Source: a virus. From it: DNA of 64,000 nucleotides. The position numbers and the translations under genes were made by a program. Positions 152-59,702 of this stretch are shown here, one piece after another. The notes beneath the pieces were generated by a model. That model was given only the letters and a program-made list of their open reading frames with translations, had not been told where the DNA came from and did not search any database. The stretch lies in the IMG/VR virus record IMGVR_UViG_3300043251_000023, positions 1-64,000 of that record; one strand, written 5' to 3'. Every line of letters begins with the position of its first letter. Position 1 is the stretch's first letter.

Positions 152-367
152 ATGAGCGAGCCTGAGCAAATCGAAGACGAAGAGATCGAACTCGTCCCGG
201 TGCCGATGCGCCCGGAGACGCGCGCTGCGCTGCGCCGGTTTGCCGAACGGATCGGTGAGCCGCCCGGCATTGCGGCCGGGATGCTATTCGAAGACCTGCT
301 CGAGGATGAAGATTTTTGGGAAGCGTTCGAAGACTCGACCGAGGTCGAGCCGCAAACCCTTAACTGA
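152..367 (+). CDS. small hypothetical protein, possible ribbon-helix-helix DNA-binding protein
   Basis: 71-aa ORF with a VPVPMRPETRAALRRFAERIG strand-helix-helix-like pattern. Confidence 0.4.
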   Translation: MSEPEQIEDEEIELVPVPMRPETRAALRRFAERIGEPPGIAAGMLFEDLLEDEDFWEAFEDSTEVEPQTLN

Positions 368-378
368 GGAGAACGGCG

Positions 379-771
379 ATGGCGAAAAAAGGCGATCCGA
401 AGGAAGCAGTCCGCAAGGTTACATCGGCGCGCAAGCTGAAGGAATTGCTGGCGTCGGCCAGGTCGGTGCGCAACGATATTTCCGAACTGTCCGGCGGGTT
501 CGGCTCGGAGATCAAGCTCGCGGTGGAAAAGAACCACCTCCACCGCAAGGCGTTCCGCGCCGCCATTGCCGAAGACCGGATGGAGCCGGAAAAGCTCGCG
601 GAATATTACGAACAACTCGACTATTACCGCGACGTCTTGGGCCTTCTCGAGCGGGCACAGAACGCGCCGAAACTGCCGATGGGCGAAGCCACGGAAGGCG
701 AAGAGGAAGGCGAGACCGGCAACGGCACGGTTCATTCGTTCCCGGCGCCGAAAACCGTCGCGGCGGAATGA
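379..771 (+). CDS. GapR/DUF2312-like nucleoid-associated protein (distant)
   Basis: GAGGAG RBS; KAFRAAIAEDRMEPEKLAEYYEQLDYYRDVLGL resembles the GapR C-terminal helices as recalled. Confidence 0.5.
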   Translation: MAKKGDPKEAVRKVTSARKLKELLASARSVRNDISELSGGFGSEIKLAVEKNHLHRKAFRAAIAEDRMEPEKLAEYYEQLDYYRDVLGLLERAQNAPKLPMGEATEGEEEGETGNGTVHSFPAPKTVAAE

Positions 772-1238
772 AGGTCCTGGGCATCGATCCAGGGTTAAGC
801 GGCGGTCTCGCGGTCGTCGAAAGCGGCGACCGCCCCCGGATAATCGGGATTATCGATGTCCCGACGACCGGGGAAAAGGCAAAGCGGCGGGTCGACGTCG
901 CCAAGGTTCTCGCCTTCCTTTGGGAACATCGGCCCGACCACGCCATCATCGAGCGCGCCCAAGCCATGCCGGAACAGGGCGCCAGCTCGGGCTTCATCTA
1001 CGGCCGAGCGGTCGGGGCGCTCGAAGCGATCGTCGAAGGGATGCAGGTCCCGCTAACGGTCATCGAGTCGACGGCATGGAAAAAGGCCCACGCCCTCATC
1101 AAGCGGGGCAAGGAAGACAGCCGGCAGCGGGCGATCAAACTCTTCCCCGCCGCGGCCGGTTTTGAGCGAAAGCTCGATCACAACAGGGCTGAAGCGGCGC
1201 TGATCGCGTGGTACGGGGTGATGCTGCTGAAAGGTTGA
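768..1238 (+). CDS. RuvC-like Holliday junction resolvase
   Basis: MKVLGIDPGLSGG start, IIE motif, DHNRAEAALIA C-terminus; ATG overlaps the upstream stop (ATGA). Confidence 0.85.
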   Translation: MKVLGIDPGLSGGLAVVESGDRPRIIGIIDVPTTGEKAKRRVDVAKVLAFLWEHRPDHAIIERAQAMPEQGASSGFIYGRAVGALEAIVEGMQVPLTVIESTAWKKAHALIKRGKEDSRQRAIKLFPAAAGFERKLDHNRAEAALIAWYGVMLLKG

Positions 1239-1240
1239 CC

Positions 1241-1801
1241 ATGTCGAGACACCACAAGACGCCGCCGCCGTACCGGCCGGAACCGCCGAAGCCGAACAAC
1301 TCGGCGGTCGTCATCGGCATCCTGGCTTTGCTTCTGCTTTTCGGGATCATTTTTTGGCTTTACGAGCCGCCGGCGCCGAAGCCGGTCCCGGCATTGCCGC
1401 CGATCAGCGGGCCGGTCGAACCGCCGCCCGTTGCGGAACCGGCCCCGGTTGTTGCGCCGGAACCCCCTCCCGTTGCGCCGGAGCCGCCCGCTGTTGCGCC
1501 CGAACCGGTTTCACCTCCGCCCCAGGAACCGGTTATTCCCGAAATCACACCGGTTCCCCCCGAAACCGCCGCGCCGCCGCCGCCGGACTTGCCCAATAGC
1601 GGCGTAAGCGCCGCGCCGCCGCCGGTAGCCATCCCCACAACGCCCTTGGCGAGCCCGCCCGTTGCCCATCCGGCCGCCCCGCCCCGACACAGGGTTCATC
1701 CCCGCCCGACGCACCGCCACGCGCCCCGACGCGGACGTGGGGGGTGCCAAGCGTGCCGGGAGCCGATGCCGGCGGACGAGTATTGCTGCGGGGTCTATTG
1801 A
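1241..1801 (+). CDS. proline-rich single-pass membrane protein with Cys-rich tail
   Basis: one hydrophobic helix (AVVIGILALLLLFGIIFWLY), VAPEP repeats, CQAC...YCC end. Confidence 0.55.
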   Translation: MSRHHKTPPPYRPEPPKPNNSAVVIGILALLLLFGIIFWLYEPPAPKPVPALPPISGPVEPPPVAEPAPVVAPEPPPVAPEPPAVAPEPVSPPPQEPVIPEITPVPPETAAPPPPDLPNSGVSAAPPPVAIPTTPLASPPVAHPAAPPRHRVHPRPTHRHAPRRGRGGCQACREPMPADEYCCGVY

Positions 1802-2415
1802 TGCTGCTCGACGCGCTGCCTAAACGGCACTTTGGGGCGATCCTCGCGGATCCTCCCTGGCATTTTCGCTCCCGAACGGCGCTGCAATCATCAAACTGGA
1901 CCAGCCGCCGGGATGCCGAAAAACATTTCGCCACCATGGGGCGGGAAGATATAGCGGCGCTGCCGGTAGGCGACTACGCCGCGCCGGACGCGCATCTTTT
2001 CCTTTGGGTGACTGGTCCCTGCCTTCCCTACGCTTTCGATGTGATGAAGGCGTGGGGCTTCCGCTATTCGGCGGTTGCCTTCACTTGGGTAAAGCTGAAG
2101 CGATCACACGACGCGCTTCAACTTCGCGTCCTGCCGACCATCGAGGGCGATCTTCATGTTGGGCTCGGATTGACCACGCGGAAGAACGCCGAATTTTGCC
2201 TCCTTGGACGGCGCGGCAATGCCAAGCGCCTGTCCAAAAAGGTGCGCGAAATTATCCTTTCGCCAGTACGCGAACACTCGCGCAAGCCTGAAGAGGCCGC
2301 AACCCGCATCGAGGAATACTGCGCCGGCCCTTATCTTGAATTGTTCGCCCGTTCCGAGCGTCCCGGATGGATTTGCCGCGGCGACGAGGTCGGCAAGTTT
2401 TCCGCCGCCGCCTAG
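1801..2415 (+). CDS. MT-A70 family adenine methyltransferase
   Basis: ILADPPW, HLFLWVT, HSRKP and LELFAR motifs. Confidence 0.9.
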   Translation: MLLDALPKRHFGAILADPPWHFRSRTALQSSNWTSRRDAEKHFATMGREDIAALPVGDYAAPDAHLFLWVTGPCLPYAFDVMKAWGFRYSAVAFTWVKLKRSHDALQLRVLPTIEGDLHVGLGLTTRKNAEFCLLGRRGNAKRLSKKVREIILSPVREHSRKPEEAATRIEEYCAGPYLELFARSERPGWICRGDEVGKFSAAA

Positions 2416-3753: not shown

Positions 3754-4061
3754 TCACCGCCGGCGAGATTCTGCGTGAGCATCGAATCGTCCTACGAGAT
3801 GAGACGATCGGCCGTCACTACGCGACCTGTCCGCAATGTTCGGCGAAACGGAAGCAGGCACACCGAAAGCTGAAATGCCTCGGCGTGACAATAAACGGCG
3901 ACGGCTTGAACTGGGGATGCAATCACTGTGGCTGGACAGGAGGGGGATTCTATGACCGGAAAAACGTTAGGCGCGCTGGGAGTGGCAGCGTTCGAGCATC
4001 GGGGCATATCTCCGGAAACGGCCGGGCGGTACGGGATATATACCGCGCGCCGGACCGATGA
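3750..4061 (+). CDS. primase zinc-binding domain encoded as a separate ORF
   Basis: CPQCS...KCL.V...WGCNHCGWTG zinc ribbon typical of T7 gp4/Twinkle N-termini. Confidence 0.75.
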   Translation: MITAGEILREHRIVLRDETIGRHYATCPQCSAKRKQAHRKLKCLGVTINGDGLNWGCNHCGWTGGGFYDRKNVRRAGSGSVRASGHISGNGRAVRDIYRAPDR

Positions 4062-5469
4062 TGGTGGTCTTGAACCGCACGAAAAAGGCAATGTCGTCGT
4101 CTTTCCGTTCTCCGACCGAGGCGCGGTCGTCAACGAAAAATATCGCGCGCCGTCGAAGAAGTTTTGGCAGCGCGCCGGCGGCAAGCGAACGTTCTGGAAC
4201 GCCGACGCTTTAGACGATCCGGCACTCGAGGACGGTCGAATGCCGCTGGTGATCACCGAGGGAGAGATCGACGCCCTGTCGGCGATCGAGTGTGGTTTTC
4301 CGCTCACCGTATCGGTTCCGGACGGGGCGCCGGGAGTGCCGGAAGGCGAAGAACCTGAGAACCTCGCGCCGCTCGACCCGAAGGCAGAGGATTCCGGAAA
4401 GTTCGAGTTTCTGTGGAACAACCGCGAGCGACTGGCGCGCGTCAAAAGGTTCGTCCTTGCCGTCGATAACGACGGACCAGGCAGACGATTGGCGGCCGAA
4501 CTCATGCGCCGGCTTTCCGCAGCCCGCTGCTCGTTTGTGATCTATCCGGACGGCTGCAAGGATCTCAACGACGTGCTGACAAAGGGCGGCGCCGAAGAGG
4601 TCGCGCGCGTCATCAATGCGGCTAAACCGTATCCGGTTCGCGGTCTTTATCGACTTTCGGAATTTCCGCAAAACGGCGCGCTGCCGACTTTTAGAACCGG
4701 ATGGTCGACGCTCAACAACAATCTTCGCTTATTCGCTGGCGAGTTCATGGTCGTCACCGGCATTCCTGGACACGGCAAATCGACATGGGTTTTGAACTTG
4801 CTTGCTGACGCCGCCGATCTTCATGGATGGCGTTCGGCGATCTTTTCACCGGAGATGCCGACTGTTCCCCAGTTGCGAGACAAGTTGCGGCGCATCACGC
4901 TTCGAGGTCCGATCGAGGGGTCGAGCCACGATATGATCGCCGAGGCCGACGAATGGATTGAGCGAAATTTCGTCTTCATTGATGTCGACCCGACCGGGAA
5001 GGACGATGAAGAGTATGATCTGGATTGGGTGCTTGATCGCGCGACCGACGCTGTTCTGCGCGATGGCGTCCGTGTGCTGGTGATCGACCCTTGGAACGAG
5101 ATCGAACACGCCAAGCGGCGAGACGAGACGATGACGGATTACATCGGTCGCGCCATCCGCGCGATGAAGCGATTTGCGCGTCTATATGAAGTTGCCGTGA
5201 TCGTGGTCGCTCATCCAACCAAAGACGTCGCCAAGGAGGGAAAAAGCCGGCCGCCGACGCTTTATGACATCGAAGGTTCGGCACACTGGTTCAACAAGTG
5301 TGATCATGGAATCGTCGTCGACTGGCCGGATTCAAACATCGCCGAAAGCGTGATCCGCGTCGCAAAGGTTCGATTCGAGGAAAGCGGCGAACGCGGTCAG
5401 GTGCGGTTAAAGTTTGACAGGTATTCGGGCCGGTATGATCTGTTGATCCGCGAGGAGACGCCGCCATGA
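3952..5469 (+). CDS. TOPRIM primase + SF4 (DnaB/T7 gp4/Twinkle-like) helicase
   Basis: ITEGEIDALS and DNDGPG TOPRIM motifs, KDLND, Walker A TGIPGHGKS, VIDPWNE, VAHP; GGAGG RBS before ATG 3952. Confidence 0.92.
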   Translation: MTGKTLGALGVAAFEHRGISPETAGRYGIYTARRTDDGGLEPHEKGNVVVFPFSDRGAVVNEKYRAPSKKFWQRAGGKRTFWNADALDDPALEDGRMPLVITEGEIDALSAIECGFPLTVSVPDGAPGVPEGEEPENLAPLDPKAEDSGKFEFLWNNRERLARVKRFVLAVDNDGPGRRLAAELMRRLSAARCSFVIYPDGCKDLNDVLTKGGAEEVARVINAAKPYPVRGLYRLSEFPQNGALPTFRTGWSTLNNNLRLFAGEFMVVTGIPGHGKSTWVLNLLADAADLHGWRSAIFSPEMPTVPQLRDKLRRITLRGPIEGSSHDMIAEADEWIERNFVFIDVDPTGKDDEEYDLDWVLDRATDAVLRDGVRVLVIDPWNEIEHAKRRDETMTDYIGRAIRAMKRFARLYEVAVIVVAHPTKDVAKEGKSRPPTLYDIEGSAHWFNKCDHGIVVDWPDSNIAESVIRVAKVRFEESGERGQVRLKFDRYSGRYDLLIREETPP

Positions 5470-5616: not shown

Positions 5617-5835
5617 ATGGTCGCGATCAATGAATCCGTGATCTACAAAAGCATGGCGGGCGAGCCTTGGGATGCGACAGTCGTCCGCGTCGGTCCTCCG
5701 GGATATGTCGACGTCACGCTTTCCGGTCCGTTCCTTCGTGAGCCGTTCGAACTTCACGCCGTTCGGTGGTACGACGATCCGGACGAGCCGAAGTCCGGAG
5801 CGCGGCCATGCGGGAAACAATATTCAGGAAAATAG
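5617..5835 (+). CDS. hypothetical protein
   Basis: 72-aa ORF with GGAG RBS, in operon order. Confidence 0.45.
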   Translation: MVAINESVIYKSMAGEPWDATVVRVGPPGYVDVTLSGPFLREPFELHAVRWYDDPDEPKSGARPCGKQYSGK

Positions 5836-5847
5836 TTTTTCTGGGTC

Positions 5848-5877
5848 TTGACGGCGTTCGCTTAAAACGCTTACATA
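5848..5877 (+). promoter_or_regulatory. putative sigma70 promoter with an inverted repeat in the spacer
   Basis: TTGACG (5848-5853), then AT-rich TTACATAAAA from 5871; GCGTT-N7-AACGC dyad at 5854-5870. Confidence 0.5.
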
Positions 5878-5883
5878 AAATTT

Positions 5884-6096
5884 ATGACCGCAGCAGACGT
5901 GCGGAGAATGTTGCAACGGGCTTGTGAAAGAGCCGGGAGCCAACGCGCATGGGCGCGTGAGCATTCGGTTTCCGTTGTTTACGTCAATGACGTTTTAAGC
6001 GGAAACCGCGAGCCTGGCCCTGCGATTTTACAAGCGTTTGGGCTGGAAGCGGAGCGGCGCACCACATATAGGAAAAAAGGGCAACCAAATGGCTGA
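5884..6096 (+). CDS. Cro/Xre-like helix-turn-helix protein
   Basis: GSQRAWAREHSVSVVYVNDVLSGNREPGPAILQAFGL HTH pattern. Confidence 0.8.
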   Translation: MTAADVRRMLQRACERAGSQRAWAREHSVSVVYVNDVLSGNREPGPAILQAFGLEAERRTTYRKKGQPNG

Positions 6097-6718
6097 GCGC
6101 ACCATCGAGATTCCTGAAATCAAACTAGACCGGATCACCGTCAAGGTCGTTGGCACGTCGCCGCTGCTCACGAATCGGTTCGGCGAAAACGCCATTACGT
6201 CCATCGAAAACAAACAACAGAAAAAGGCCAAGGGCGTGAAGGAGGCGCGCGACCCCCACGCGGAGTTTGTCGAAAAACTGCATGTCATAAAAGCAGGTAA
6301 AAGCGATCTTGATGGCACGTTCGGCTATCCGTCCATCGGCATCAAAAAGTGTCTTGTCGTTGCCGGTGGGCGGTTCGCCGACGAAAAGATGACGCATCTG
6401 CGCGGCGCGATCAACATTCTCGGCAGCCTCATCGAAATCAAATCGCCACCCCCGACCATGCGGACGGACACCGTGCGCCTGCAGGGCGGCGTGACCAGCA
6501 TCGCCTATCGGCCGTCGTTCTGGCCGTGGGAAATGGAAATTCCGGTTGTGTATAACGCAGGCATCATCGGCCCCGCGCAAATCCTCAACCTTTTCCAGAT
6601 TGCCGGTTTTGCGGTAGGATTCGGCGCATGGCGCCCCGAACTTAACGGCGTGTTCGGCCAGTTCGTTTTGAAGGATTCCGCCGAAGTCCAGACGAAAGGA
6701 CGGGCCAAGGCGGGATAA
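6089..6718 (+). CDS. stand-alone RAMP/Cas7-like RNA-binding protein (Vipr-like guide-binding effector)
   Basis: N-terminal strand ITVKVVGTSPLL, YPSIGIKKCL, YRPSF.PWEMEIPV and a C-terminal glycine-rich loop AGFAVGFGAWRPELNGVFGQF; no other cas genes; directly followed by the pentamer array. Confidence 0.8.
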   Translation: MAERTIEIPEIKLDRITVKVVGTSPLLTNRFGENAITSIENKQQKKAKGVKEARDPHAEFVEKLHVIKAGKSDLDGTFGYPSIGIKKCLVVAGGRFADEKMTHLRGAINILGSLIEIKSPPPTMRTDTVRLQGGVTSIAYRPSFWPWEMEIPVVYNAGIIGPAQILNLFQIAGFAVGFGAWRPELNGVFGQFVLKDSAEVQTKGRAKAG

Positions 6719-7251
6719 AACACAAGAGCAGACTCGATTTGCTATGCGTTGAACAGACCTTAAGACAGTCAACGAGCATCTGTAGCGAAAAGAAAACAGG
6801 CGCATAGATCGGAGCGGACTCGACAACACTACACAACAAGAGAAAAGTTTAATCCATTTGCCAATAGAGGAGATTAGCAAACTAAGGACGCGACGAGAAT
6901 CGAGAACACGCGAAATGCTTTGTCCATTTGCTATAAGAAAAGCTGAGAGCAAATTTGCGTAGCCTAGCCTTGACACGCAAAGCATCGACGTGAGAACCGC
7001 TGAAATGAAAAGTTTAATTCCTTTGCCATCTGAATGGAGCCGACACGAGGCGAGGCGCGGAGAAAACCCGTGACGACAAATGAAAAGTTTAAACAATTTG
7101 GGCATTTGATAAGAAAAGCTTAGCTGTGACGACAATGGACAACCGAACAACCGAGAAGAAATGTTTTTGTTTGGCCCTTTATCAAAAGAGCCGATTTGCG
7201 TTGCAGAGACGCGCGTAGAAATGTCGTCACGACAATCGAGATGAAATGTCT
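6715..7251 (+). repeat. array of seven tracts of 5-nt units (NG[A/C] or AC[A/C] triplet + variable NN), mostly separated by conserved NGAAA-WGYTT + ~10-nt ...TTTG linkers
   Basis: by my count 71 of 91 core pentamers have G at position 2, 15 more start AC, and none has G at position 3; phase is unbroken over 6781-7090; linkers AATCCATTTG 6851, TGTCCATTTG 6921, AATTCCTTTG 7016, AAACAATTTG 7091, degenerate at 7167. Confidence 0.92.
6715..7251 (+). ncRNA. putative multi-guide precursor RNA (gapped-code guides) for the adjacent RAMP protein
   Basis: the variable dinucleotides of six tracts decode to conserved transposase or mobile-element protein motifs; transcription and processing are not shown. 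Confidence 0.75.
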
Positions 7252-8307
7252 ATATCGATCAAAGAGTATTTTGCGCTGGCTGGAACGTCGTTCACCAACG
7301 ACGATGCGCGGGTTATCGGCCCGGTTCTCCAAGAGATTGCCACCGATGGTAGCGTGACCGCAGAGGCGGTCGTGCAGGCCGCGCATTCCGCAAATAGCCC
7401 ACTGCGCAGCTATTTCGAGTGGGACGACAAAAAGGCTGCTCACCAATATCGAGTCGGCCAAGCCAACTACATGATAAACGCTGTCCGCGTGCGCTTTGTC
7501 AGCGCCGGCAAGGAATATGCGACGCGCGCTTATCGGGTTGTCACCAAGCAGTACGAAGGCGACGCGGCCGGATGGGATGAAGACGAGCGATCCGTCGAAA
7601 TCGTGCGGTCGCCGAACGATGAAATCTTGGCCGCGCTGCGGGAGGTTGATGCGTGGCGCGTCAAATATGCTCACCTTTCCACCTTCCAGAATGCCAAATC
7701 GTTTTTGGTGCCGATCTTCAACCAGATTGCCGAGTTCCGCGCGGATTTGGCTGGCAAAGAGGCTATGCCCATAGACGGGGCGCTCGGCGAGCTTACCCAA
7801 TGGGTTCAAAAATATGGCGACGCCGATGCCGTGTCCGCCTCTGCTCTCCTTGGCGAGCACATTCACTACATGGTGGAGGCGATCAACGAGTCCTGGGAAA
7901 ACTTTGGACGCTTCAAGCATGATCCGGCATTGCGTCGGTCTCTGGTGGAGGAAGAAAACGAGGAATTGCGCGAGCGCGTCCGGATTTTGGAGGAGATGTT
8001 AAACGGGAAGGAAAGTCTGCCGCCGGAATTGAGGTTGACCGCAAGCGAGGAGCGCGTCGTGTCAGCCCTGCTGTCGCGAGACGTTATGACCAAAGAGGCC
8101 ATTTCGATGGCGCTCTATTCCGACCGCCCCGATGTTGCGCCAGAATTAAAAATTGTCGACGTATTCGTGTGCAAAATCAGAGCGAAGATTGAATCGCACG
8201 GGTTGAAAATCGAAACGCATTGGGGACGCGGCTATTCGATGCCGGCGGAGAGTAAGCAAGAGCTGCGCGGCATGATCGCCGCGCGCAAAGAGGCCGCAGC
8301 GGCATGA
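7246..8307 (+). CDS. RAMP-associated partner domain fused to an OmpR/PhoB (CtrA-like) winged-helix DNA-binding domain
   Basis: N-terminal VTAEAVVQAA...SPLRSYFEWDDKKAAHQYR motif; C-terminal LTASE...LYSDRPDVAPELKIVDVFVCKIRAKI...IETHWGRGY. Confidence 0.75.
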   Translation: MSISIKEYFALAGTSFTNDDARVIGPVLQEIATDGSVTAEAVVQAAHSANSPLRSYFEWDDKKAAHQYRVGQANYMINAVRVRFVSAGKEYATRAYRVVTKQYEGDAAGWDEDERSVEIVRSPNDEILAALREVDAWRVKYAHLSTFQNAKSFLVPIFNQIAEFRADLAGKEAMPIDGALGELTQWVQKYGDADAVSASALLGEHIHYMVEAINESWENFGRFKHDPALRRSLVEEENEELRERVRILEEMLNGKESLPPELRLTASEERVVSALLSRDVMTKEAISMALYSDRPDVAPELKIVDVFVCKIRAKIESHGLKIETHWGRGYSMPAESKQELRGMIAARKEAAAA

Positions 8308-9038
8308 AACCTTTGCGTCGATTTGCAGATCATGGCGACGCCGGCGCGCCTTACTCACTGGCCCCGTCGCATATCGCCGCGCGGCTTGGCACAAGCCTTT
8401 ATCGCGAAGGGCGCCTAGGCTTCCCCAAGGGCAAAACGCTCCTAACCAGCGGCCATAACAATCGCAAGATCGGCGCCGTCATCCAAAAGGGTAGATGGAA
8501 GGGCTACCCGGTCTTTACCTTGACCCTGGAGGAACGCGCCACCTGTCCGCGCTCATGCGCGCATTGGCTCGATTGCTACGGTAACAAGATGAACTGGCCT
8601 ACTCGATGGATGAATGACGCGGACCTGATACCGACAATCGGTAGGAACCTATCGGATTTATCGAGAAACGTCCCGAATTTCGTTATCCGGCTTCATGTCC
8701 TTGGCGACTTTTATTCAGTCGCCTACGTCGAGCAATGGGCGCGATGGCTCGATGAATTTTCCGGCTTGCACGTCTACGGCTACACGGCTTGGCAGCCGGA
8801 TACTGCGATCGGTCGCACCGTCGCCGCACTCGCGGAAGCCCGCTGGGATCGTTTTGCGGTTCGCACGTCGAACGGCGTCGTGGCCGAACGCACGACTGCC
8901 ACGATCTACGAGGCCAACGCCAGCGGCCAAATAAATGGCGGCACGGTCTGTCCGGTACAGACAGGAAAAACCGAATGTTGCGCGACGTGTGCTTTATGCT
9001 GGCAGACGCAGAAGCGCATCATCTTCCTGGCGCACTAG
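8304..9038 (+). CDS. GP88-like Cys-rich phage protein
   Basis: TCPRSCAHWLDCY, IRLHVLGDFYS, C-terminal CPVQ...CCATCALCW. Confidence 0.6.
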   Translation: MKPLRRFADHGDAGAPYSLAPSHIAARLGTSLYREGRLGFPKGKTLLTSGHNNRKIGAVIQKGRWKGYPVFTLTLEERATCPRSCAHWLDCYGNKMNWPTRWMNDADLIPTIGRNLSDLSRNVPNFVIRLHVLGDFYSVAYVEQWARWLDEFSGLHVYGYTAWQPDTAIGRTVAALAEARWDRFAVRTSNGVVAERTTATIYEANASGQINGGTVCPVQTGKTECCATCALCWQTQKRIIFLAH

Positions 9039-18536: not shown

Positions 18537-19583
18537 TCCCTGAACAGCAGGAAGAACCATGAGAACCGATGAGGCAATGAAGGTCGAGACCATTGCGCAG
18601 CTTCACGATACGGCCTGCCATGAGGTCGCGCGCCTCACTGAGCTCCGCGAATCAGACGCGAAGGTGATCGCGGCGTTGAGGGCAACAATTCTGAACATCG
18701 GCGATCTTGCGGACAAGGCCACTCATGGCGGCGGTACTACTTTCTTGTATGGCGTCACACTGCGGGATATTATTTTCCGATGCGCTACGGCGTTATCGCC
18801 GACAGGTGAGCAGACAGCAGGGAGAAGCAATGATGTTTAAGGACGTGCTCTTTATCGACAATCCTCGTTCGTGGCCGCCGTGTGAGCCAGCGTCCGATCC
18901 GGACTGGATCAAGCACGTTCATTGTGACAGCGCTCGATGGCATACGCCGTCATGGGGCTTGTATCATAGCTGGCGCGGTGAGCGCGCGATTGAGCGATGT
19001 TCGCAGGCTTGTTGTATCGTCAACAAAATAGCCGCTGAACAACTTGCTGAAATCGGCATAAAGGCCACCTTTGTCACACACAAAGACGGCAAGATACTTC
19101 CGCGTTCATAAGCGATTAGCCGGGAGAACCCATGAGCACAGCAGAACAGATTGTTAATCGAGCGCTCCAAAAAGTCGGTCGCGATCCTCGCATCGATCCC
19201 AAGCCAGGTGATATCGTGCGCTCGGATTATCCGTCGATTGGCGAGCGCCATGTAATCCATGCGAACGAATGTGGCGTTTCCTATTGGCGCATTCGGCCTA
19301 ACGGTAGGCGATATGATGGGTACTGCCTCCCCGGCATTTGGCAAAAATGGTGCCGAGGCCATAGGGCCGCTATCATCCAAACAGGCGGTTAATGGCCAAT
19401 AAGCACGGAGAAAATCATGGGCTACAAAATGTCGCTCTATTCTTGCACCTGCCGGATGAACTCGGTCAATTCGGCGTCGCTCGATCCGCCCGAGCCGATC
19501 CTTGATCCGTGGTGCCCGATCCACGGCAAAGACCCTGATGTGGAATACGAAAAACGACGCGACGACGCGCTGTGGGATCGGAA

Positions 19584-30546: not shown

Positions 30547-30822
30547 ATGCCGCTGACCGCCAAGGGCGAAGAGATCAAATCCGCGCTCACCAAGGAGTAC
30601 GGCAAGGAAAAGGGCGAGCAGGTCCTCTACGCGGGCAAGAACAAAGGCACGTTCACTGGGATCGATTCCACCCCCGCCGGCCTAAATACCGTCATCGACG
30701 CAGTCTGCTCGATGTGCGACAGCATCGACAAGATGACCGCGCGGCTCGGAGCGCACTGCGACGACCGGCGGGTGATCGGCGGCGTCGGGCATGACGCGAC
30801 GAACATCAAGGTCGTCTCGTGA
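30547..30822 (+). CDS. small head-module protein
   Basis: MPLTAKGEEI...YGKEKGEQVLYA.KNKG motif. Confidence 0.6.
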   Translation: MPLTAKGEEIKSALTKEYGKEKGEQVLYAGKNKGTFTGIDSTPAGLNTVIDAVCSMCDSIDKMTARLGAHCDDRRVIGGVGHDATNIKVVS

Positions 30823-32744
30823 AAGCTGCCGGGATTTTGCTCGTATCGATGAATGGAAACGCTTTGTTTCTCCGGCGGACCGCGAGCGCGCCCGATTGCC
30901 CCGCGTGTTGGGATTTTCCCGGTGGCGGCCAAGAAGGCGACGAGACCGCCGAGCAGACCGCGATCCGCGAGACCCGCGAGGAGATCGGCCACGTCCCCGA
31001 CGGCATCAGAATCCTCCACACCCGAACCCGATCCGGCTCCGCGCTGCAAGGCGTGGCTGGTCCCGGCGCGTCGCCGCTTGGCAACCCTGTTGACGGCGGC
31101 GCGCCGACGGCCCCTTCGATTGTCCCAGCGATGCCGGTCGATGTGGACTACACGACGTTCCTGCAAAAAGTGACGAACGAGTTCGTGCCGGAGCTCAACG
31201 ACGAGCACGACGGCTACGCCTGGTCGCCGATCACGGCGCCGCCCGAACCGCTGCATCCCGGTTGCCGGATCGCGCTCGAGCGTCTGTCGATGGACGAACT
31301 CGACGTCGCGCGGGCGATGGTCGACGGTCGCCTCGTCTCGCCGCAACGCTATGAAAACGTGACTTTGTGGGCGATTCGCATAACCGGGACGGGTGGTTCG
31401 TTCCGGCCCAAGGTCGAGGAATTTGTCTACCGCGATGCCGACATCCACCTGACCGAACGGATGCTGGCCCGCTGCAACGGCCTCCCGGTGATCTTCAAAC
31501 ACCCCGCCAAGGCGCTCCTGAACAGCGAGGAGTTCGCTAATCGTATTGTGGGGACCATTTTTTTGCCGTATGTTGCCGGCGATGAGGTCTGGGGCATCGC
31601 CAAAATCTACGACGATGAAACCAACCGGCTCTTAGACGAGGAGAACCTTTCCACCTCACCCGGCGTGAACTTCAAGGACTTCAAGGTCAATCGAAGTCTG
31701 CGCATGGAGGATGGTTCGAAGGTTCTCATCGAAGGCAAACCGAGTCTCGTCGACCACGTCGCGATTTGCGAGTTGGGCGTCTGGGACAAGGGCGGCGACC
31801 CGAGCGGCATTCGTTCCGAATCACGAGAGGACACAGCGATGGCTGACGAAGCGAAAAAGGAAGAGGCCAAGGACGATGCCGCGAAGAAGGATGCGGTCGC
31901 AGAGCAGCCCAAGATGGACGCCAAGAAAGACGCTGCCAAGGACGACGCCGCCCGCAAGGACGCGGACGCCGGCAAGTCCTTAGACGAAAAGCTCTCCCAC
32001 GTTCTCGATGCCGTCACCGGGTGCATGGACGCCGTGAAACGGGTCGACGCCCGGATGGACGCGATGGACGAGGAGAAGAAGAAAGCCGACGCGGCCAAGA
32101 AGGACGAGTTCCCGGACAAGAAGGAAGAAGCCGAAAAGACCGCCGCCGACAAGGCGAAGAAGGACGCGGCCGACAAGGAGGAGGAAGAAAAAAAGAAGGC
32201 CGACGCCGCCAAGAAAGACGAGGAAGACAAGGCGAAAGCCGATACCGCCGGTCTGGGCGACCGGATCGCCGCCGTCGAGCGCGCCGTCAAGGCGACCGAC
32301 GCGAAGATCATGCCGATCCCGGACGACGATCATTCCCGCCTCGCCGACGCTTGGGCAATCGCTGACGATGCCTGCCGGGCGCTGGGGATGAACGGCCCGC
32401 GCGCGATGCCGGGCGAGACCTCCGCGCAGTTCCGGCGCCGGGTGGTCAAGCTCCTCAAGCCGCACAGCGCGACCTGGAAGGACGTCGACATCGCCACGGC
32501 CGCCTATGCCGACGAAGCGATGTTCGCCGTCGTCGAGAAGCAGGTCCTCACCGACGCTGCGAAGGCGGCGCGCGACCCGGCCAATGTCGCCGGCGACCAG
32601 CTCCGCATGATCGAGCGCAAGGCGGACGGCCACACGATTCGCGAGTTCGTCGGTCGGCCGGCTGCCTGGATGAACCAGTTTGCCGGGCCGGTTCAGCTCC
32701 GCGGCGAGGGCAAGTTCCTTACCGACAATCTCGGCAAGAACTGA
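30819..32744 (+). CDS. NUDIX domain + DUF2213-like prohead protease + scaffold fusion
   Basis: Nudix box PGGGQEGDETAEQTAIRETREEIG; HP...STSP...DHVAIC.GVWD; D/A/K-rich scaffold tail. Confidence 0.85.
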   Translation: MKAAGILLVSMNGNALFLRRTASAPDCPACWDFPGGGQEGDETAEQTAIRETREEIGHVPDGIRILHTRTRSGSALQGVAGPGASPLGNPVDGGAPTAPSIVPAMPVDVDYTTFLQKVTNEFVPELNDEHDGYAWSPITAPPEPLHPGCRIALERLSMDELDVARAMVDGRLVSPQRYENVTLWAIRITGTGGSFRPKVEEFVYRDADIHLTERMLARCNGLPVIFKHPAKALLNSEEFANRIVGTIFLPYVAGDEVWGIAKIYDDETNRLLDEENLSTSPGVNFKDFKVNRSLRMEDGSKVLIEGKPSLVDHVAICELGVWDKGGDPSGIRSESREDTAMADEAKKEEAKDDAAKKDAVAEQPKMDAKKDAAKDDAARKDADAGKSLDEKLSHVLDAVTGCMDAVKRVDARMDAMDEEKKKADAAKKDEFPDKKEEAEKTAADKAKKDAADKEEEEKKKADAAKKDEEDKAKADTAGLGDRIAAVERAVKATDAKIMPIPDDDHSRLADAWAIADDACRALGMNGPRAMPGETSAQFRRRVVKLLKPHSATWKDVDIATAAYADEAMFAVVEKQVLTDAAKAARDPANVAGDQLRMIERKADGHTIREFVGRPAAWMNQFAGPVQLRGEGKFLTDNLGKN

Positions 32745-46649: not shown

Positions 46650-46919
46650 TGTCTGCTCCGCTTGCAATCTCTGCAGGAAACGCCAGATCGCCTTATAGCT
46701 TCCGATTCCTGTCAGTGCGATCTGGTGGGCGTTGAGTCCGCTTCGGTGAAGTTCGATGATCCGATCGTACCAACCGGGCGCTTTCTTTCGATAGCGACGG
46801 GATACCTCCCGCGTTGTTCCGTAATCGTATTTGCACGATGTGCATCGGCGCTGATTGCGCCTGATCCGATAGACCTTGGAACACCCGCATCTCGGGCAGC
46901 ACTCATTCTCCAGACCCAT
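46641..46919 (-). CDS. IS1595-transposase-like zinc ribbon + HTH, without DDE domain
   Basis: CPRCG...C..C zinc ribbon; GLNAHQI...SYKAIWRFLQRL resembles the IS1595 N-terminal region. Confidence 0.6.
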   Translation of the reverse strand: MGLENECCPRCGCSKVYRIRRNQRRCTSCKYDYGTTREVSRRYRKKAPGWYDRIIELHRSGLNAHQIALTGIGSYKAIWRFLQRLQAEQTLR

Positions 46920-47857
46920 GTTCGCCTCTGATGTTCGGTCATCCCTGTGGCTGCGCTGAGAAGATCAAGAAGTTGGCGCATAGTAGCATCGACGTTTTGC
47001 CCGCGGCATTTGAACATAAACGTTAATTCACTGCGTCCTCGATCTACATCTAAACAGGCATCAAGCATCAATAGAGCGGCGTTCCCCATCGACTTCTGAA
47101 AATCGCGCCTCCGCATCATTGATGTGTATTGGCGTTCGGTAAGATCACCGCGTTTCTGATAGTGCAGACCACCGCGCGGTTCCGACCAATCAATGCTGAC
47201 GTTTGGCTGGATCGCCGCCGCCTCCATATCCCACTGCCAAGACCGGCCGGCGCGGAGTTGAAGCGCGGTGATCTTTTTTTCTGCATAAAGCTGCATGAGA
47301 ATGTCGCGTTCGGATGGCGCGACAAGCTTACCGCCATCTTCGGATTGATAATGCTCTACATTGAATTGCTGCCGCTCTGCCACATCAGCCATTGGGAAAG
47401 GCTGGTCTGCAAAGTCAGGTTTGTTGTCCCTCGGACGGTTTGCTAGATATTGCGCAACACTCTCAGCCAACGCCGACTCCATCGGGGTCCGTGGCGACTG
47501 CGGCTTCTGTGTGCGCTTCTGCCTCTTCCACCATCCGGGATGATCGGCCATGAACTGCTCCCATTGGGCGGGGAGCATGTCGCCCTTCAGATTATTGCAC
47601 TCTCTGCAGCACGGCACTAGCTGCGTGCCGCCAGCGGACGCGGGTACATAATGATCGCGCGTCGCGGCGACGCGCGAATGCGACGAAGTCCTCTCCATGA
47701 GTCGTTTGCAATAAGTGCACGGAAGCCCCTCGCCTTTGCGACCGCGAAGATTGAGCGGCGGCTCAACAAAGAAAAATGTTTTTGCTCCGGTGTTGCGGTC
47801 GATCTCTTTATAAAGAGGCTTGCGACCGTGTCCGTGCCGCGACGTTCTAGTGCCCAT
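46712..47857 (-). CDS. HNH-domain protein with an unknown C-terminal domain
   Basis: CTYC...TRDHYVP.S.GG...CCRECNNLKGD; the last ~70 codons overlap the next ORF. Confidence 0.7.
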   Translation of the reverse strand: MGTRTSRHGHGRKPLYKEIDRNTGAKTFFFVEPPLNLRGRKGEGLPCTYCKRLMERTSSHSRVAATRDHYVPASAGGTQLVPCCRECNNLKGDMLPAQWEQFMADHPGWWKRQKRTQKPQSPRTPMESALAESVAQYLANRPRDNKPDFADQPFPMADVAERQQFNVEHYQSEDGGKLVAPSERDILMQLYAEKKITALQLRAGRSWQWDMEAAAIQPNVSIDWSEPRGGLHYQKRGDLTERQYTSMMRRRDFQKSMGNAALLMLDACLDVDRGRSELTFMFKCRGQNVDATMRQLLDLLSAATGMTEHQRRTWVWRMSAARDAGVPRSIGSGAISADAHRANTITEQRGRYPVAIERKRPVGTIGSSNFTEADSTPTRSH

Positions 47858-53647: not shown

Positions 53648-54280
53648 GTGTCCATATTTTTGATGGCGAATAATGCGTCGAGCACGCTCGCCGCGCCCAT
53701 ATCGAACTCCGCGACGACGGTCTCGCTCGCGGTCGGAACGGGAGCGCTGTTTCCCAACCCTAGCGCCGGCCAGCAATTCCCCCTCACCTTCAACGATGCC
53801 GCGACCGGGCTTTTGACGGAGATCGTCTATTGCACCTCGAGGGCCGGGGACACGCTCACCATCGTCCGGGCGCAGGAAGGAACGACTGCGCAGGCGTGGC
53901 TGGCGGGAGACCTCGCGGCGAACCTCATCACGGCAGGATTGCTCGCGGCCTACCAGCAGAGCGCGGCGCTCAGCCCGGCGCGGACGGTCACGGCCTCCGG
54001 GGCCTTCGCGATGAGCACGGCCGATGCCGGCGGAGGCGTCGGTCTTGACAGGATTGTCGGCCCTGCGGTTTCCTCGACCACGCTCCCGGTCTCGACCGAT
54101 GGGCAAACCTACTGGATCGAGGACCTCGCCAGGAACTTCAACGCCTATCCGGTGACGGTGACATTTCCCGGGGGAACGACTGGACCGAACGGCGCCGCGA
54201 CGGTCACGCTCAATGTCAACGGTCAGTGCGCGCAGTTCCGCTTCTACGCCGACAGCAACATTTGGAGTTTCCGACCATGA
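53648..54280 (+). CDS. proximal tail fibre protein
   Basis: ANNASSTLA...EIVYCT.R.GDTLTIVRAQEGT. Confidence 0.7.
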   Translation: MSIFLMANNASSTLAAPISNSATTVSLAVGTGALFPNPSAGQQFPLTFNDAATGLLTEIVYCTSRAGDTLTIVRAQEGTTAQAWLAGDLAANLITAGLLAAYQQSAALSPARTVTASGAFAMSTADAGGGVGLDRIVGPAVSSTTLPVSTDGQTYWIEDLARNFNAYPVTVTFPGGTTGPNGAATVTLNVNGQCAQFRFYADSNIWSFRP

Positions 54281-55674
54281 CGAAGAGAATCGCCGCCTTT
54301 GCGGCCGGTCTTTTCCTTCTCCTCGCCTTCGCCTTCCCGGCGGCGGCGCAGTTCGACCAGGCGTCCTACGCCGGGACCGGAGCGGGCTCCGCGAACGCGC
54401 AGACCATCACCTTGCCGAACGCCACGCAATACAGCGATCTTCTCGGCGTTCTGATCAAGTACATTCCCGGCGTGACGAACACGGCCGCGGCCACGCTCGC
54501 CGTATCCGGTAACGGCGGTGCGCTGACCGGCGGTCCCATCTCTTTCCGCAAGCCGTCCATCGGCGGTCTGGTCGCCCTGACCGGCACCGAACTGATCGTC
54601 GGGCAACCCGTTTGGATCATGTACGACGGGACCTATTTCGACGTTCTGAGTGTGACCAGCAGCACGGTGACGGCCGCGAATCTCGCAAACTCGGCGCTCG
54701 GTTTTATGCCAGTCAATTCTCAGCTCAATGCTGCGGTGTCGGCTAACGCGCTGACGATCTCACTGTGTTCGGCCAACTCCGGCAGCAATACGTGCATCAA
54801 TCCAAGCGCGACGAGTCCGGTCCTGATCCCGTTCCGTGATTCCACGATTGCCTTTGGTGATCCGACTATCGTTCCGGTCACTGGCGCGCTCAGCTTCACC
54901 ATCGCGTCTGGGCAAACGATGGGCTGCGTCAATAACCAGATGTGCCGGCTCTGGATTCTCGCCTTCAACAATGCCGGGACGGTCCAGCTTTGCGCGTTCA
55001 ACGCGCTCAGCGGAACGTCGGTGGCGCCGATCAACGAGGGCGTCCTGCAGACGAGCCAGTCCGGCACTTCAGGCGGCTCGTCGGCGCAGCTTTATTACTG
55101 CAACGCCTCGGCGGTGACGAACAAGGCGGTCCGCATCCTCGGCTACGTCGAGATCAGCGAGTCCACGGCGGGGACTTGGGCGACCGGGCCGACCTACGTT
55201 CAGTTGTTCGGCCCGGGCGTGAAGAAGCCCGGTGACGTAGTCCAGCGCATTTTCTCGACTAATAGCACTTCGTATTCGTCGACGACGTCCTACGCGGCGG
55301 CGACGAATTTCAACCAAGCCATCACGCCGACGTCGGCGGCAAACCCTGTGTTTGTTCATGCAGAAGCCAATTACCAGACGACCGCGAACGACGGCAGCAA
55401 CGCTCAGATCGGCCGAACGAGTTGCTCGAATCTGGTGGGGAATAATGCGGTGCTCAGTGGAAGCACCGCCGTGATTGGCATGGCGCCAGTATCGGCCATC
55501 GACTCCCCAAACACCACCTCGTCCGTCACTTACGTTCTGTGCCTGAAATCGTCGGTTAATGGCGCGACCGCGTTCAACAATAATACCGGCAACATCAGTT
55601 CGATGTCGGTCGAGGAGATTATGGGCGCGCTAGAACCGGCGAACGACGACCAACCGCTCCGCATGGTGGGCTGA
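54277..55674 (+). CDS. tail fibre-like beta protein with a signal-peptide-like N-terminus
   Basis: MTKRIAAFAAGLFLLLAFAFPAAA-Q; Ser/Thr/Gly-rich. Confidence 0.6.
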   Translation: MTKRIAAFAAGLFLLLAFAFPAAAQFDQASYAGTGAGSANAQTITLPNATQYSDLLGVLIKYIPGVTNTAAATLAVSGNGGALTGGPISFRKPSIGGLVALTGTELIVGQPVWIMYDGTYFDVLSVTSSTVTAANLANSALGFMPVNSQLNAAVSANALTISLCSANSGSNTCINPSATSPVLIPFRDSTIAFGDPTIVPVTGALSFTIASGQTMGCVNNQMCRLWILAFNNAGTVQLCAFNALSGTSVAPINEGVLQTSQSGTSGGSSAQLYYCNASAVTNKAVRILGYVEISESTAGTWATGPTYVQLFGPGVKKPGDVVQRIFSTNSTSYSSTTSYAAATNFNQAITPTSAANPVFVHAEANYQTTANDGSNAQIGRTSCSNLVGNNAVLSGSTAVIGMAPVSAIDSPNTTSSVTYVLCLKSSVNGATAFNNNTGNISSMSVEEIMGALEPANDDQPLRMVG

Positions 55675-59000: not shown

Positions 59001-59702
59001 GGCAACGTGCCGGGGTTCAACGCCCTGGCGTTTGCCACGAACGGCAGCAACTTCTTCTTTCGCGCCGACGGCACCGCGGCGAGCCCCACGGCGCTCGCGC
59101 TCAACGACAACATCGGCGCCATCACCTGGGGCGGCTACGCCGGGTCCACCGCCGGCTACGTCTCCAGCAAGGCCCGCATCGCGGGCATCGTGATCGACGC
59201 CTCGGGCTACGGCACCTCGACGCAGGGCACCGGCATCGAGTTCGACGCCACGCCGTCCGGCAGCACCACCCGCGCCCAGGCCGGTCGCTTCATGGCGGGC
59301 TTCATCGTGGGCACCGGCACGACCGACCCCGGCGCCGGTAATGAACTTGTCGGTGGTCATATCCTAGCAACCGGAACGGCGCCGACGATTTCTGCCTGCG
59401 GCACCGGAACGCCGACGATCTCCGGCGGCGACAACTTCGGGACCGTGGTGGCTGGCACTGTCGCCACGTCGTGCGTCGTCAACTTCGGAGCGACCTGGGG
59501 TGCCGCCCCGCGTTGTGCCGTCTCGTCGGGAACAGCCATTGCTTCTTTGACTGTCAGCGCCACGACGACGCAACTGACGATCACCGGGACCGCGCTCGGC
59601 GGCGACACGATCAACTGGGTCTGCGGGAGCACCGCCAGCCTGGAACCGAATGGTTCGCCGGCCAACGACAATGCGCCACCGTGGCTATCCAAAGCCGCTT
59701 GA
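56013..59702 (+). CDS. tailspike/fibre with pectate-lyase-like beta-helix (putative depolymerase)
   Basis: GAVGNGSTDDSAAF...GGVIYVPPGNY beta-helix start; signal-peptide-like N-terminus. Confidence 0.8.
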   Translation: MLNIARAFAFLAVVAFGGSAVAQPGPGQNSGPVPPPSPWLYAAPQIYPPTGSCVTMPQTVPGGCPGAGNAINVSGGYYLNGVALDSISSVTPPLSVSSGVLSILNGTSIANPGTGTLEDLVPSQTITGTSKVYATVDLWKRTRRSNSGTAMTDTLPASSATGMVNGARIEIKNVDASATDTVSAGAGTTIIGGASFSLQAGRDLELTYDLANTTWRAEANTDTAALINQPNFYSADNYFGSGRPVCDPRAKGAVGNGSTDDSAAFKACRVALDAIGGGVIYVPPGNYCLKTADANNAVIAISATPITVIGAGINVSNLWTCGTDVTIGYANIVGAGFLNLSYLGKGGQGNPNDTTFGATSPAFKFDTSCGICRISYVRGFGGLYALQNLGFDSWVSDFSFGYTYGNAIMYEAGNGHRVEHGALDQNWPVVLPNQNSVTISAWQATHSYSGNGASNTNVVSTQGYNIQLVSASCTSGGTAPPLNNYGTVIVDGSCSWQLVGNTTYYGEDCDGNCAELILHGEVDLNCGGCTYDFAMTNNNAGTAPNVVTVDGSSIGQAIIAPIGLLAGSGFTLSNSHIATSVQGGALGLYVPASGFTGDASIVGNRFSGGGACIGIGTAPSGQAGYTITANRFLSCSQAIDYFNTGAALHITAGHNTMVGVSNAWVSPAGSSYYEFTNNDVGGAAVTFTSGDANKKIAGNDGSATPVSNGGTGLATLTAHAVLLGEGAGNVAFATIGTGGRLLIDQGAVDPVFTAMSGDAALAASGALTLATVNGNVGTFGGANAIPSITVNGKGLVTAVSTVAPNPTQVNGVSFGAAPIGTNTVCVATSTTACAWSSVPNAALANSTISGVSLGGSLAVLSYGTHLTNGAGAGSYNGSAASTLATDATNTNTASTIVARDGSGNFSAGTVTASLTGHASLDLALTGGAMSGNIAMAGNSLTGAMGLNGVETILSGGNIGFGTETNPQAAFVFSANTTTGITFPVNTSGLWSISANSGNVPGFNALAFATNGSNFFFRADGTAASPTALALNDNIGAITWGGYAGSTAGYVSSKARIAGIVIDASGYGTSTQGTGIEFDATPSGSTTRAQAGRFMAGFIVGTGTTDPGAGNELVGGHILATGTAPTISACGTGTPTISGGDNFGTVVAGTVATSCVVNFGATWGAAPRCAVSSGTAIASLTVSATTTQLTITGTALGGDTINWVCGSTASLEPNGSPANDNAPPWLSKAA

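Follow-up and report, generated by a model that had tools for sequence, protein, structure and literature searches.

The closest described relatives of the locus discussed here are the VIPR (Viral Interference Programmable Repeat) systems, which were introduced in 2026 as RNA-guided DNA binders (bioRxiv 10.64898/2026.04.26.720920). As set out in the main texts of the preprints, they consist of a small RAMP protein, Vipr, with an RRM core, a thumb and a glycine-rich loop, and of guide RNAs (vrRNAs) of 9 to 16 GGY-NN units with one protomer per unit; the GGY bases are sequestered, while the NN bases pair with double-stranded DNA and every third target base, usually a wobble base, is skipped, with sites on either strand and transcriptional silencing as the outcome (bioRxiv 10.64898/2026.04.26.720920; 10.64898/2026.04.26.720927). 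Such systems, mostly of viral or proviral location, encode their vrRNAs in intergenic DNA on the flanks of vipr, end each repeat tract with an invariable structured 3' tail and have an accessory vap gene of predicted DNA-interacting function; the expressed vrRNAs co-purify with Vipr. Non-canonical arrays of the types NNNGG, YNNNG and NNNNG are known as well (bioRxiv 10.64898/2026.04.26.720920), and the further motifs GAC/NN, CAC/NN, WGT/NN and TGH/NN are named in the text of another preprint (bioRxiv 10.64898/2026.10.21.760802). Here, a 64,000-nucleotide (nt) stretch of viral DNA was analyzed (positions 1 to 64,000 of IMG/VR record IMGVR_UViG_3300043251_000023; this whole stretch is called the window). 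Very probably, the window carries a VIPR system of its own, composed of a vipr gene, an array of seven guides and an accessory gene (Table 1), whose guides would bind the genes of IS1-like and IS1595 insertion sequence (IS) transposases and most likely block their transcription.

Much of this organization agrees with the published systems of SUSP1 and Pseudomonas fulva. Like these, the locus is phage-borne and encodes a small RAMP protein with a YRP thumb and a G-x-G-x-W-R-P G-loop, and as in SUSP1, tandem 5-nt units with two variable bases and a 1-nt skip at the wobble position are accompanied by an accessory DNA-binding gene, which is a predicted one in our case. The locus differs from SUSP1 in its scaffold, which is H-G-A (H being A, C or T) instead of G-G-Y, and in the G-loop, where Ala takes the place of Asp. 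The window has its whole set of seven guides between vipr and the accessory gene; SUSP1 has one guide upstream and three downstream. The accessory protein shows no BLASTP similarity to SUSP1 vap1, the blocks that follow the guides have no significant fold, and the targets are IS transposases as opposed to the satellites or prophage regulators targeted in SUSP1 and P. fulva. With the non-canonical VIPR arrays, the locus shares a non-GGY trinucleotide, the period of 5 and an adjacent Vipr-like fold. It keeps only the second G, which corresponds to the NNNNG pattern. The text of the preprints on non-canonical arrays does not mention H-G-A as a motif, although their figures or supplements may list it.

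The RAMP fold is also that of the Class 1 CRISPR backbone proteins (Cas7/Csm3/Cmr4), and the structural preprint describes in its main text how Vipr protomers polymerize on the guide while the thumb flips bases at a fixed period (bioRxiv 10.64898/2026.04.26.720927). Unlike in Class 1 CRISPR systems, two of five guide bases pair with two of three target bases, not five of six. The nearest functional parallel is SUSP1 vrRNA4, which according to the main text targets a satellite recombinase (bioRxiv 10.64898/2026.10.15.759431). In both cases the guide follows the codon periodicity of a mobility-enzyme gene, so that synonymous changes offer no escape and immobilization is the expected outcome. In contrast to vrRNA4, the target here is an IS-family DDE transposase and not a satellite excision recombinase, the sites are paired on opposite strands, and the case is known from sequence alone. 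A system of this kind is thus already in print, and IS transposases appear to be new as natural targets; this target class was not found in the main texts of the VIPR preprints, whose supplements (data S3, fig. S17) may bear on it.

The array occupies a 527-bp, A-rich gap (6719-7245) between two plus-strand genes, and its units directly follow the vipr stop codon. Identity between bases reached 0.386 at a lag of 5, 0.337 at a lag of 10 and 0.321 at a lag of 15; the remaining lags in the range of 1-14 gave values of 0.19-0.30. When all 150-nt segments of the 64 kb were ranked by 5-nt period, the top 18 started between 6601 and 7101, and within the window this period is unique to the array gap. 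Segmentation with a five-state hidden Markov model (HMM) placed the units in a single register that slips by 1 nt at two places (6778 and 7104). By this segmentation, position 1 of the unit is A47/T25/C22/G6 %, position 2 is G68/C18 %, position 3 is A62/C21/T14/G3 %, and positions 4-5, the NN bases, are near uniform. Units of 5 nt with a trinucleotide and two variable bases beside a vipr gene are therefore present as in the described systems, with the consensus H-G-A rather than GGY. At the gathering score no Rfam family was found in the window, and Tandem Repeats Finder reported a 16-nt repeat only.

Within the array, seven guide tracts of 10-14 units each were delimited, and six of them are followed at the 3' side by a conserved block, none being present between guides 1 and 2. 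The blocks are approximately 14-28 nt long, are in register with the units and form the direct-repeat families D1 and D2. Between the window and the related phage locus L016 they are kept while the intervening guides differ. The blocks may represent a 3' handle or tail of the guides; we word this role cautiously because no significant fold was predicted for them.

Guides 6 and 7 carry the central evidence. An earlier note on this DNA had read them as two strings of dinucleotides encoding two motifs of the same IS1-family transposases on opposite strands, and had proposed that gapped patterns made from them be searched for hits to one family. The strings were borne out as positions 4-5 of the pentamers at 7104-7151 and 7182-7241; they are not contiguous text. 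For the searches, the NN bases were taken as codon positions 1 and 2 with a free third base, which results in 24 fixed bases for guide 7 and 20 for guide 6. The guide-7 pattern, as its reverse complement, was found in 13 viral contigs, and all 13 sites were in frame, antisense and encoded one 12-residue motif of one transposase family. In the matched proteins, this motif lies N-terminal of the stretch ...YNF.RIH.TLR.TPAMAAG. Four other 20-base guide patterns gave no match in the same viral-contig collection. Agreement of this kind greatly exceeds chance expectation. The guide-6 pattern matched twice in genome contigs, a collection that covers 185,579 species with a single genome per species. 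In a metagenome-assembled genome (MAG) of Allosphingosinicella (L002), all 10 units matched in frame and in sense orientation at AFYNFCRIHETLR of the same IS1-like family, and a different contig of this MAG matches guide 7 perfectly over 11 units. The second match (L001, Enterococcus) lies outside any open reading frame (ORF) and is a chance match, as expected for 20 fixed bases.

For a comparison independent of the guides, 80 IS1-like loci in viral contigs were chosen by protein similarity. Guide 7 in its 11-unit form matched 22/22 bases in 27 of them and at least 20/22 in 71, and with all 12 units the maximum was 24/24 and the median 22. Guide 6 reached 19/20 in eight loci, 18/20 in four and at least 16/20 in 46. 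Wherever both guides matched well (44 of 44 loci), the sense site of guide 6 started 81 nt downstream of the antisense site of guide 7, and hence both patterns map to one transposase family on opposite strands, as the earlier note had anticipated. With shuffled unit order, maxima on the 80 loci were only 14-17. Out of 20 combinations of five registers and skips of 0-3, only the NN register after H-G-A with a skip of 1 scored, which holds for guides 1, 2, 6 and 7; for guide 7, the other 19 combinations gave maxima of 16-19 on the IS1-like loci. A skip of exactly one base, its position at the wobble base and the occurrence of both sense and antisense sites are the properties described for VIPR targets, and with this mode of NN pairing the word "guides", already used in the earlier note, is justified. 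When up to 3 mismatches were allowed, neither of its two patterns occurred within the window, and no guide has a self site in the 73.5-kb genome with up to 4.

The gapped reading follows the variability of the target genes closely. Over 79 guide-7 sites, the entropy was 0.21 bits at the paired and 1.46 bits at the skipped positions, and the 27 perfect sites comprise 21 different DNA sequences. Judged by codon positions 1-2, the guide-7 site ranks second in conservation among 304 eleven-codon windows of the gene; in the ranking of non-overlapping blocks, the guide-6 site falls into the seventh. As for the family itself, a full-length member of 302 amino acids (aa; L005) matched Pfam PF03400 DDE_Tnp_IS1 with 28.9 bits (cut-off 24.1), while it scored 72.8 bits against NCBIfam NF033558 (IS1), below the cut-off of 100. 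The IS1 assignment of the earlier note is thus retained in a weaker form: since only the Pfam model is passed, "IS1-like" is the right term. In total, 101 stretches encoding relatives of this transposase were confirmed in viral contigs.

Conservation in related phages points in the same direction. The closest relative (L016/L024) has a Vipr that is 96 % and an accessory protein that is 86 % identical. Its array keeps guides 1, 6 and 7, carries other guides in place of 2-4 with the intervening blocks kept, and lacks guide 5 (alignment gap); guide 1 is kept in L025 as well. Compared with L016, guide 6 has 4 substitutions, all in the scaffold, and guide 7 has 5 in the scaffold and one in NN, the latter in its twelfth unit. 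For the 21 units of guides 6 and 7 without that unit, this amounts to 9 scaffold and 0 NN substitutions (P 0.008), and when it is counted, 1 of 10 substitutions falls in NN (P 0.04). Both values suggest selection on the NN bases of these two guides. The twelfth unit, GA in the window for a Ser codon, is AA in L016, and because of this difference we take the conserved guide 7 as 11 units, one fewer than first proposed. In L025, whose Vipr is 89 % identical, a different guide reads DEIWSFVYA of the IS1-like family with 17 of 18 bases at one locus.

Three further guides point to IS1595 transposases. The 10-unit pattern of guide 1 matched at least 120 metagenome contigs, and among the matches listed, LGVTYKSAWF was encoded in frame and antisense in 80 of 80 loci, in proteins of approximately 320 aa. 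One of these proteins (L132) scored 187.9 bits against NF033547 (IS1595; cut-off 75). Guide 2 matched 18-23 of 26 bases on 113 of the 121 tabulated IS1595 loci, which had been picked by guide 1, compared with a maximum of 18 on the 80 IS1-like loci. Its site abuts the guide-1 site directly upstream in the same genes, and the 3' ends of the two guides meet at one Arg codon. Guide 4 gave a single match of 26/28 in 401 genomes (G271:C23:27870-27910) and none in a backward control; the ORF concerned (L245) belongs to another IS1595 subgroup and scored 149.3 bits against NF033547 with the same cut-off of 75. On other IS1595 loci, guide 4 matched 19-21 of 28 bases at YKSAWF..HRIR.A. Sub-patterns made from units 2-11 of guide 1 and from units 3-12 of guide 4 had no match in the viral contigs, and the targets of both guides were found with other unit choices or collections. 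Five of the seven guides thus aim at IS transposases of two families, IS1-like and IS1595. As a separate observation, a C-terminal fragment of an IS1595-like transposase (minus strand) abuts a 45-residue IS1-like fragment (plus strand) at 6892-7250 of L002.

Table 1. Features of the predicted VIPR locus, in positions of the window; NN lists the variable bases of successive units, and capital letters in unit lists mark NN.
Feature	Position	Strand	Description
vipr	6101-6718	+	RAMP-family guide-binding protein (by homology), 205 aa
vrRNA array	6717-7255	+	about 105 pentamer units H-G-A-N-N in one register (five-state HMM segmentation)
Guide 1	6717-6777	+	NN = AA CA GC CT TT TA GT AC CC AG GT CG; antisense, R-x-LGVTYKSAWF, IS1595
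Guide 2	6778-6840	+	NN = TC AG AA AA GG AT TC GC CT CA CT CA AG; sense, SSKKGMSA(H/L)QLHR, IS1595
Guide 3	6861-6910	+	NN = AT GG TT AA AA CG CG AT GA CG; target not found
Guide 4	6931-7000	+	NN = TA AA TG GC TT GT CT CT CA AA AT CG GA GC; sense, YKSAFVLLHKLREA, another IS1595 subgroup
Guide 5	7026-7080	+	NN = TC AT GC CA GG GG GG AA CG CG AA; target not found
Guide 6	7104-7151 (earlier note: 7102-7151)	+	NN = TT TA AA TT TG CG AT CA GA AC; sense, FYNFCRIHET, IS1-like
Guide 6, units	from 7104	+	aTT tgaTA agaAA agcTT agcTG tgaCG acaAT ggaCA accGA acaAC
Guide 7	7182-7241	+	NN = AA GC TT GT AG CG GT AA CG CG AT (GA); antisense, IS1-like
Guide 7, units	from 7182	+	tcaAA agaGC cgaTT tgcGT tgcAG agaCG cgcGT agaAA tgtCG tcaCG acaAT cgaGA
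Conserved block, example	7001-7028	+	tgaAA tgaAA agtTT aatTC cttTG cca, after guide tract
Conserved block, further copies	6841-6863, 6911-6933, 7076-7103, 7157-7179, 7242-7255	+	
vap-like accessory gene	7246-8307	+	353 aa; N-terminal domain of unknown function and C-terminal winged helix

The gene upstream of the array was listed as an ORF starting with TTG at 6038. Its homologues start at MAERTIEIPEI, and translation probably begins at the ATG codon of position 6101. With phmmer, the protein matched the PDB entry 36pp_D, "SUSP1 Vipr protein", at an E-value of 8.7e-4, and a profile of 23 homologues improved this to 1.2e-5 with the YRP thumb and the G-x-G-x-W-R-P motif aligned. BLASTP against ALH47069.1 of phiSUSP1 gave an E-value of 9e-10 over 72 residues. 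An AlphaFold model (pLDDT 75.9) had 47 Foldseek matches at E ≤ 1e-3. All PDB matches listed were CRISPR RAMP backbone or effector proteins (type III Csm/Cmr, type VII and Cas7-11/gRAMP), with 6xn3_F as the best at 2.2e-5. By homology and predicted structure, the upstream gene is a Vipr homologue with a RAMP fold.

The unusual scaffold can be related to the G-loop of this protein. According to the main text of the structural preprint, G1 of the SUSP1 scaffold is read by H17 and D177 and G2 by R138 and W178 (bioRxiv 10.64898/2026.04.26.720927). The window G-loop GFGAWRP aligns to the SUSP1 sequence GVGDWRP in such a way that D177 is replaced by Ala, while W178, R179 and the YRP thumb are kept. 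The H-G-A scaffold in place of GGY goes together with an Asp-to-Ala exchange at a G-loop residue that reads the first G in SUSP1. For a broader view, G-loops and learned scaffolds were compared across 20 viral loci with Vipr relatives, which represent few independent lineages; each of the 20 had at least one flagged period-5 region. G[DE]WR coincided with GGY (L029, L032, L033, L034, L037, L041), GAWR with H-G-A/C (the window, L016, L025, L027), GE[MN]R with a weak second G (L031, L038, L039) and GEDR with GTT (L040), and L043 has a distinct C-A motif. This covariation is a correlation and not a proof, and it agrees with the roles that the structural preprint assigns to the residues. The composition learner failed to recover GGY from the SUSP1 intergenic regions and, for this reason, is not a validated vrRNA caller; the register in the window is validated by the targets. 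Among related viral loci, period-5 arrays with G-A-C, G-T-T and C-A-rich scaffolds were noticed at L019 3001-3940, L040 2001-2500 and L043 1591-2230, respectively. L019 was found through the accessory protein, and the Vipr G-loops of L040 and L043 are GEDR and GSHR.

The accessory protein matched Pfam Trans_reg_C with 34.5 bits at residues 261-331 and phrog_15946 at residues 27-152, and it had no significant sequence match in the PDB (best E 0.12). Its winged helix makes it a predicted DNA-interacting protein, as would fit the definition of a vap gene. In viral loci found through this protein, a period-5 tract lies beside the gene in eight of eight cases, which ties its N-terminal domain to such tracts. 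In Gordonia phages, a homologue of its N-terminal domain lies approximately 300-400 nt downstream of the vipr homologue. The Vipr relatives of these phages share ~32 % identity; phages of Mycobacterium smegmatis have Vipr relatives as well, some with an N-domain homologue, and all of these proteins are annotated as hypothetical. Records from the two groups of phages include NC_031249.1 (32738-34105), MN234179.1, OP820472.1, MW534375.1 and NC_023580.1. Pairs of Vipr and vap-like genes are thereby flagged in isolated phages of both genera.

A working model can be drawn from these data together with the published systems. The array would be transcribed with vipr from the plus strand, and the transcript would be cut into guide tracts, each with its following conserved block, and then coated by Vipr. 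Within such a ribonucleoprotein, each Vipr protomer would hold the H-G-A of one 5-nt unit and present the two NN bases. In each target triplet these would pair with two DNA bases, the skipped base being the codon wobble. Guides 6 and 7 would bind IS1-like DDE transposase genes on opposite strands, at C-terminal motifs that are the most conserved and lie 81 nt from each other, and guides 1, 2 and 4 would do likewise on IS1595 transposase genes. Binding inside the transposase gene would block transcription, and the IS, or elements moving by them, would be immobilized in the infected cell, possibly to the benefit of the phage. Immobilization of IS is suggested as the purpose because of the published satellite-recombinase case and because IS1-like relatives are common in viral contigs. 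Going one step further, we tentatively put forward, as a possibility about which we remain doubtful, that this clade of VIPR systems in phages is a dedicated anti-IS device, with guides under selection and paired on opposite strands at the best-conserved motifs of both transposase families, which shuts down transposition in the infected cell and protects the phage genome from IS insertion.

Several observations weigh against a functional anti-transposase VIPR system at this locus. The homology to SUSP1 Vipr is limited to the C-terminal 52-72 residues, and scaffold position 3 is mostly A, while the SUSP1 pocket reportedly excludes purines; on account of both points, the binding details of the model are extrapolated. 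In six of the 20 Vipr-relative loci (L026, L028, L030, L035, L036, L042), the unit composition is weak or unclear. Guides 3 and 5 remained without a target in the searches made: both had no exact match in viral contigs, did not rise above shuffles in the 1.19 Mb of fetched loci and had no match in G001 or G271 with up to 3 mismatches. For guide 6, the 80 viral IS1-like loci offered no 20/20 site, and its perfect site in the Allosphingosinicella MAG sits in a 45-residue C-terminal IS1-like remnant. The two IS families were seen in various contigs and genomes, and the model presumes that they also occur where the phage replicates. Five guide-plus-block stretches had no significant fold (z 0.14 to 1.31 and -0.53), unlike the SUSP1 pseudoknot tail. 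No sigma-70-like promoter was detected in 5800-8400, where a scan gave 3 terminator-like sites, fewer than in shuffles, and no RNA run containing the stretch was among the sequencing runs listed.

Other explanations of the matches have to be considered alongside. The true targets could be larger competing elements such as prophages, satellites or plasmids that carry IS1-like and IS1595 transposases or move by them, in which case the guides would be weapons of inter-element warfare. This would suit the 101 IS1-like relatives in viral contigs and the natural targets given in the published main texts, namely satellites, prophages and other VIPRs, with one vrRNA on a satellite recombinase (bioRxiv 10.64898/2026.04.26.720920; 10.64898/2026.10.15.759431). 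However, the matched genes are transposases of approximately 300-390 aa that fit IS1 and IS1595 models and occur in many unrelated contigs, and in the fetched flanks guides 3 and 5 did not point to any further gene that a larger element might share; we consider this explanation unlikely. It is very unlikely that the IS sites serve as decoys or as a sink, that is, as multi-copy host sequences on which Vipr complexes of the phage or of a rival are parked or titrated. IS elements are indeed multi-copy, and the main text of one preprint reports solo vrRNAs of satellites aimed at repetitive extragenic palindromic (REP) elements (bioRxiv 10.64898/2026.10.15.759431), but the guides of the window stand beside their own vipr and vap genes and not solo, they choose the most conserved coding motifs and not any repeat, and skipping of the wobble base matters only for variable coding targets.

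An action on the transposase mRNA rather than on DNA would be conceivable for guides 1 and 7, which are antisense to it, and the main text of the structural preprint states that the filament can pair with single-stranded RNA but mostly stalls there and forms no triplex (bioRxiv 10.64898/2026.04.26.720927). Guides 2, 4 and 6, in contrast, carry the sense sequence and cannot pair with mRNA, which makes this mode of action highly improbable. The array is part of the replication module, which encodes a primase/helicase at 3928-5469. This location would be compatible with a period-5 tract that binds a protein as RNA or DNA and has no role as a guide, such as a TRAP-like RNA or origin iterons, and whose codon matches are coincidental. 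TRAP, for instance, binds triplet repeats with 2-nt spacers. Such a coincidence is scarcely credible, given that 24 fixed bases match one motif in 13 of 13 cases, that five guides match two transposase families, that of the 20 combinations of register and skip just one works, and that the array has a Vipr homologue as its neighbor. The gapped matches and the Vipr homology led us to drop TRAP-like triplet-repeat RNA and origin iterons, as well as a reading as short ORFs that start at repeated ATGs.

With binding of IS transposase genes as the preferred reading, the natural target range of VIPR, which the main texts give as phages, satellites, other VIPRs and REP decoys, would be extended to IS transposases. 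The 21 DNA sequences behind the 27 perfect guide-7 sites illustrate how a gapped code can cover a whole protein family. The link between G-loop residue and scaffold is testable and would be useful to predict and engineer orthogonal pairs of Vipr and vrRNA. Should this VIPR clade indeed be a dedicated anti-IS device, it would be the first natural RNA-guided transposon control by a virus of bacteria, and the re-coded H-G-A scaffold would be explained by a single G-loop change.

The system is carried by a genome assembled as one contig of 73.5 kb, in which genes for terminase, portal, tail sheath and baseplate are present. It belongs to a contractile-tailed soil phage, and the viral location is that of VIPR systems; no CRISPR repeats or cas genes were found in the neighborhood of the locus. 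Outside the array, a tract of ~11 H-G-A-NN-like units at 19100-19155 (plus strand) scored 19.2 bits; elsewhere in the genome, the next site that is not part of the array reached 13.6. It overlaps the start of a small plus-strand ORF (ATG near 19131), had no target above shuffles in the fetched loci, and could be a solo guide or a chance occurrence.

Upstream of the VIPR locus, the replication module encodes a RuvC-like resolvase (240-1238, plus strand), whose listed ORF is ~170 aa longer than the domain match, and an MT-A70 DNA methyltransferase (1744-2415, plus strand). At 30819-32744 (plus strand), a 641-aa protein is encoded whose N-terminus is NUDIX-like and which along its length matches phrog_6216, a family of unknown function. 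In the tail region, two plus-strand genes encoding proteins of 482 aa (54226-55674) and 1229 aa (56013-59702) had no PHROG match at E ≤ 1e-5. An ORF at 46712-47857 (minus strand) is located inside the tail gene block, on the opposite strand, and shows weak matches to HNH-endonuclease PHROGs (E ~4e-6).

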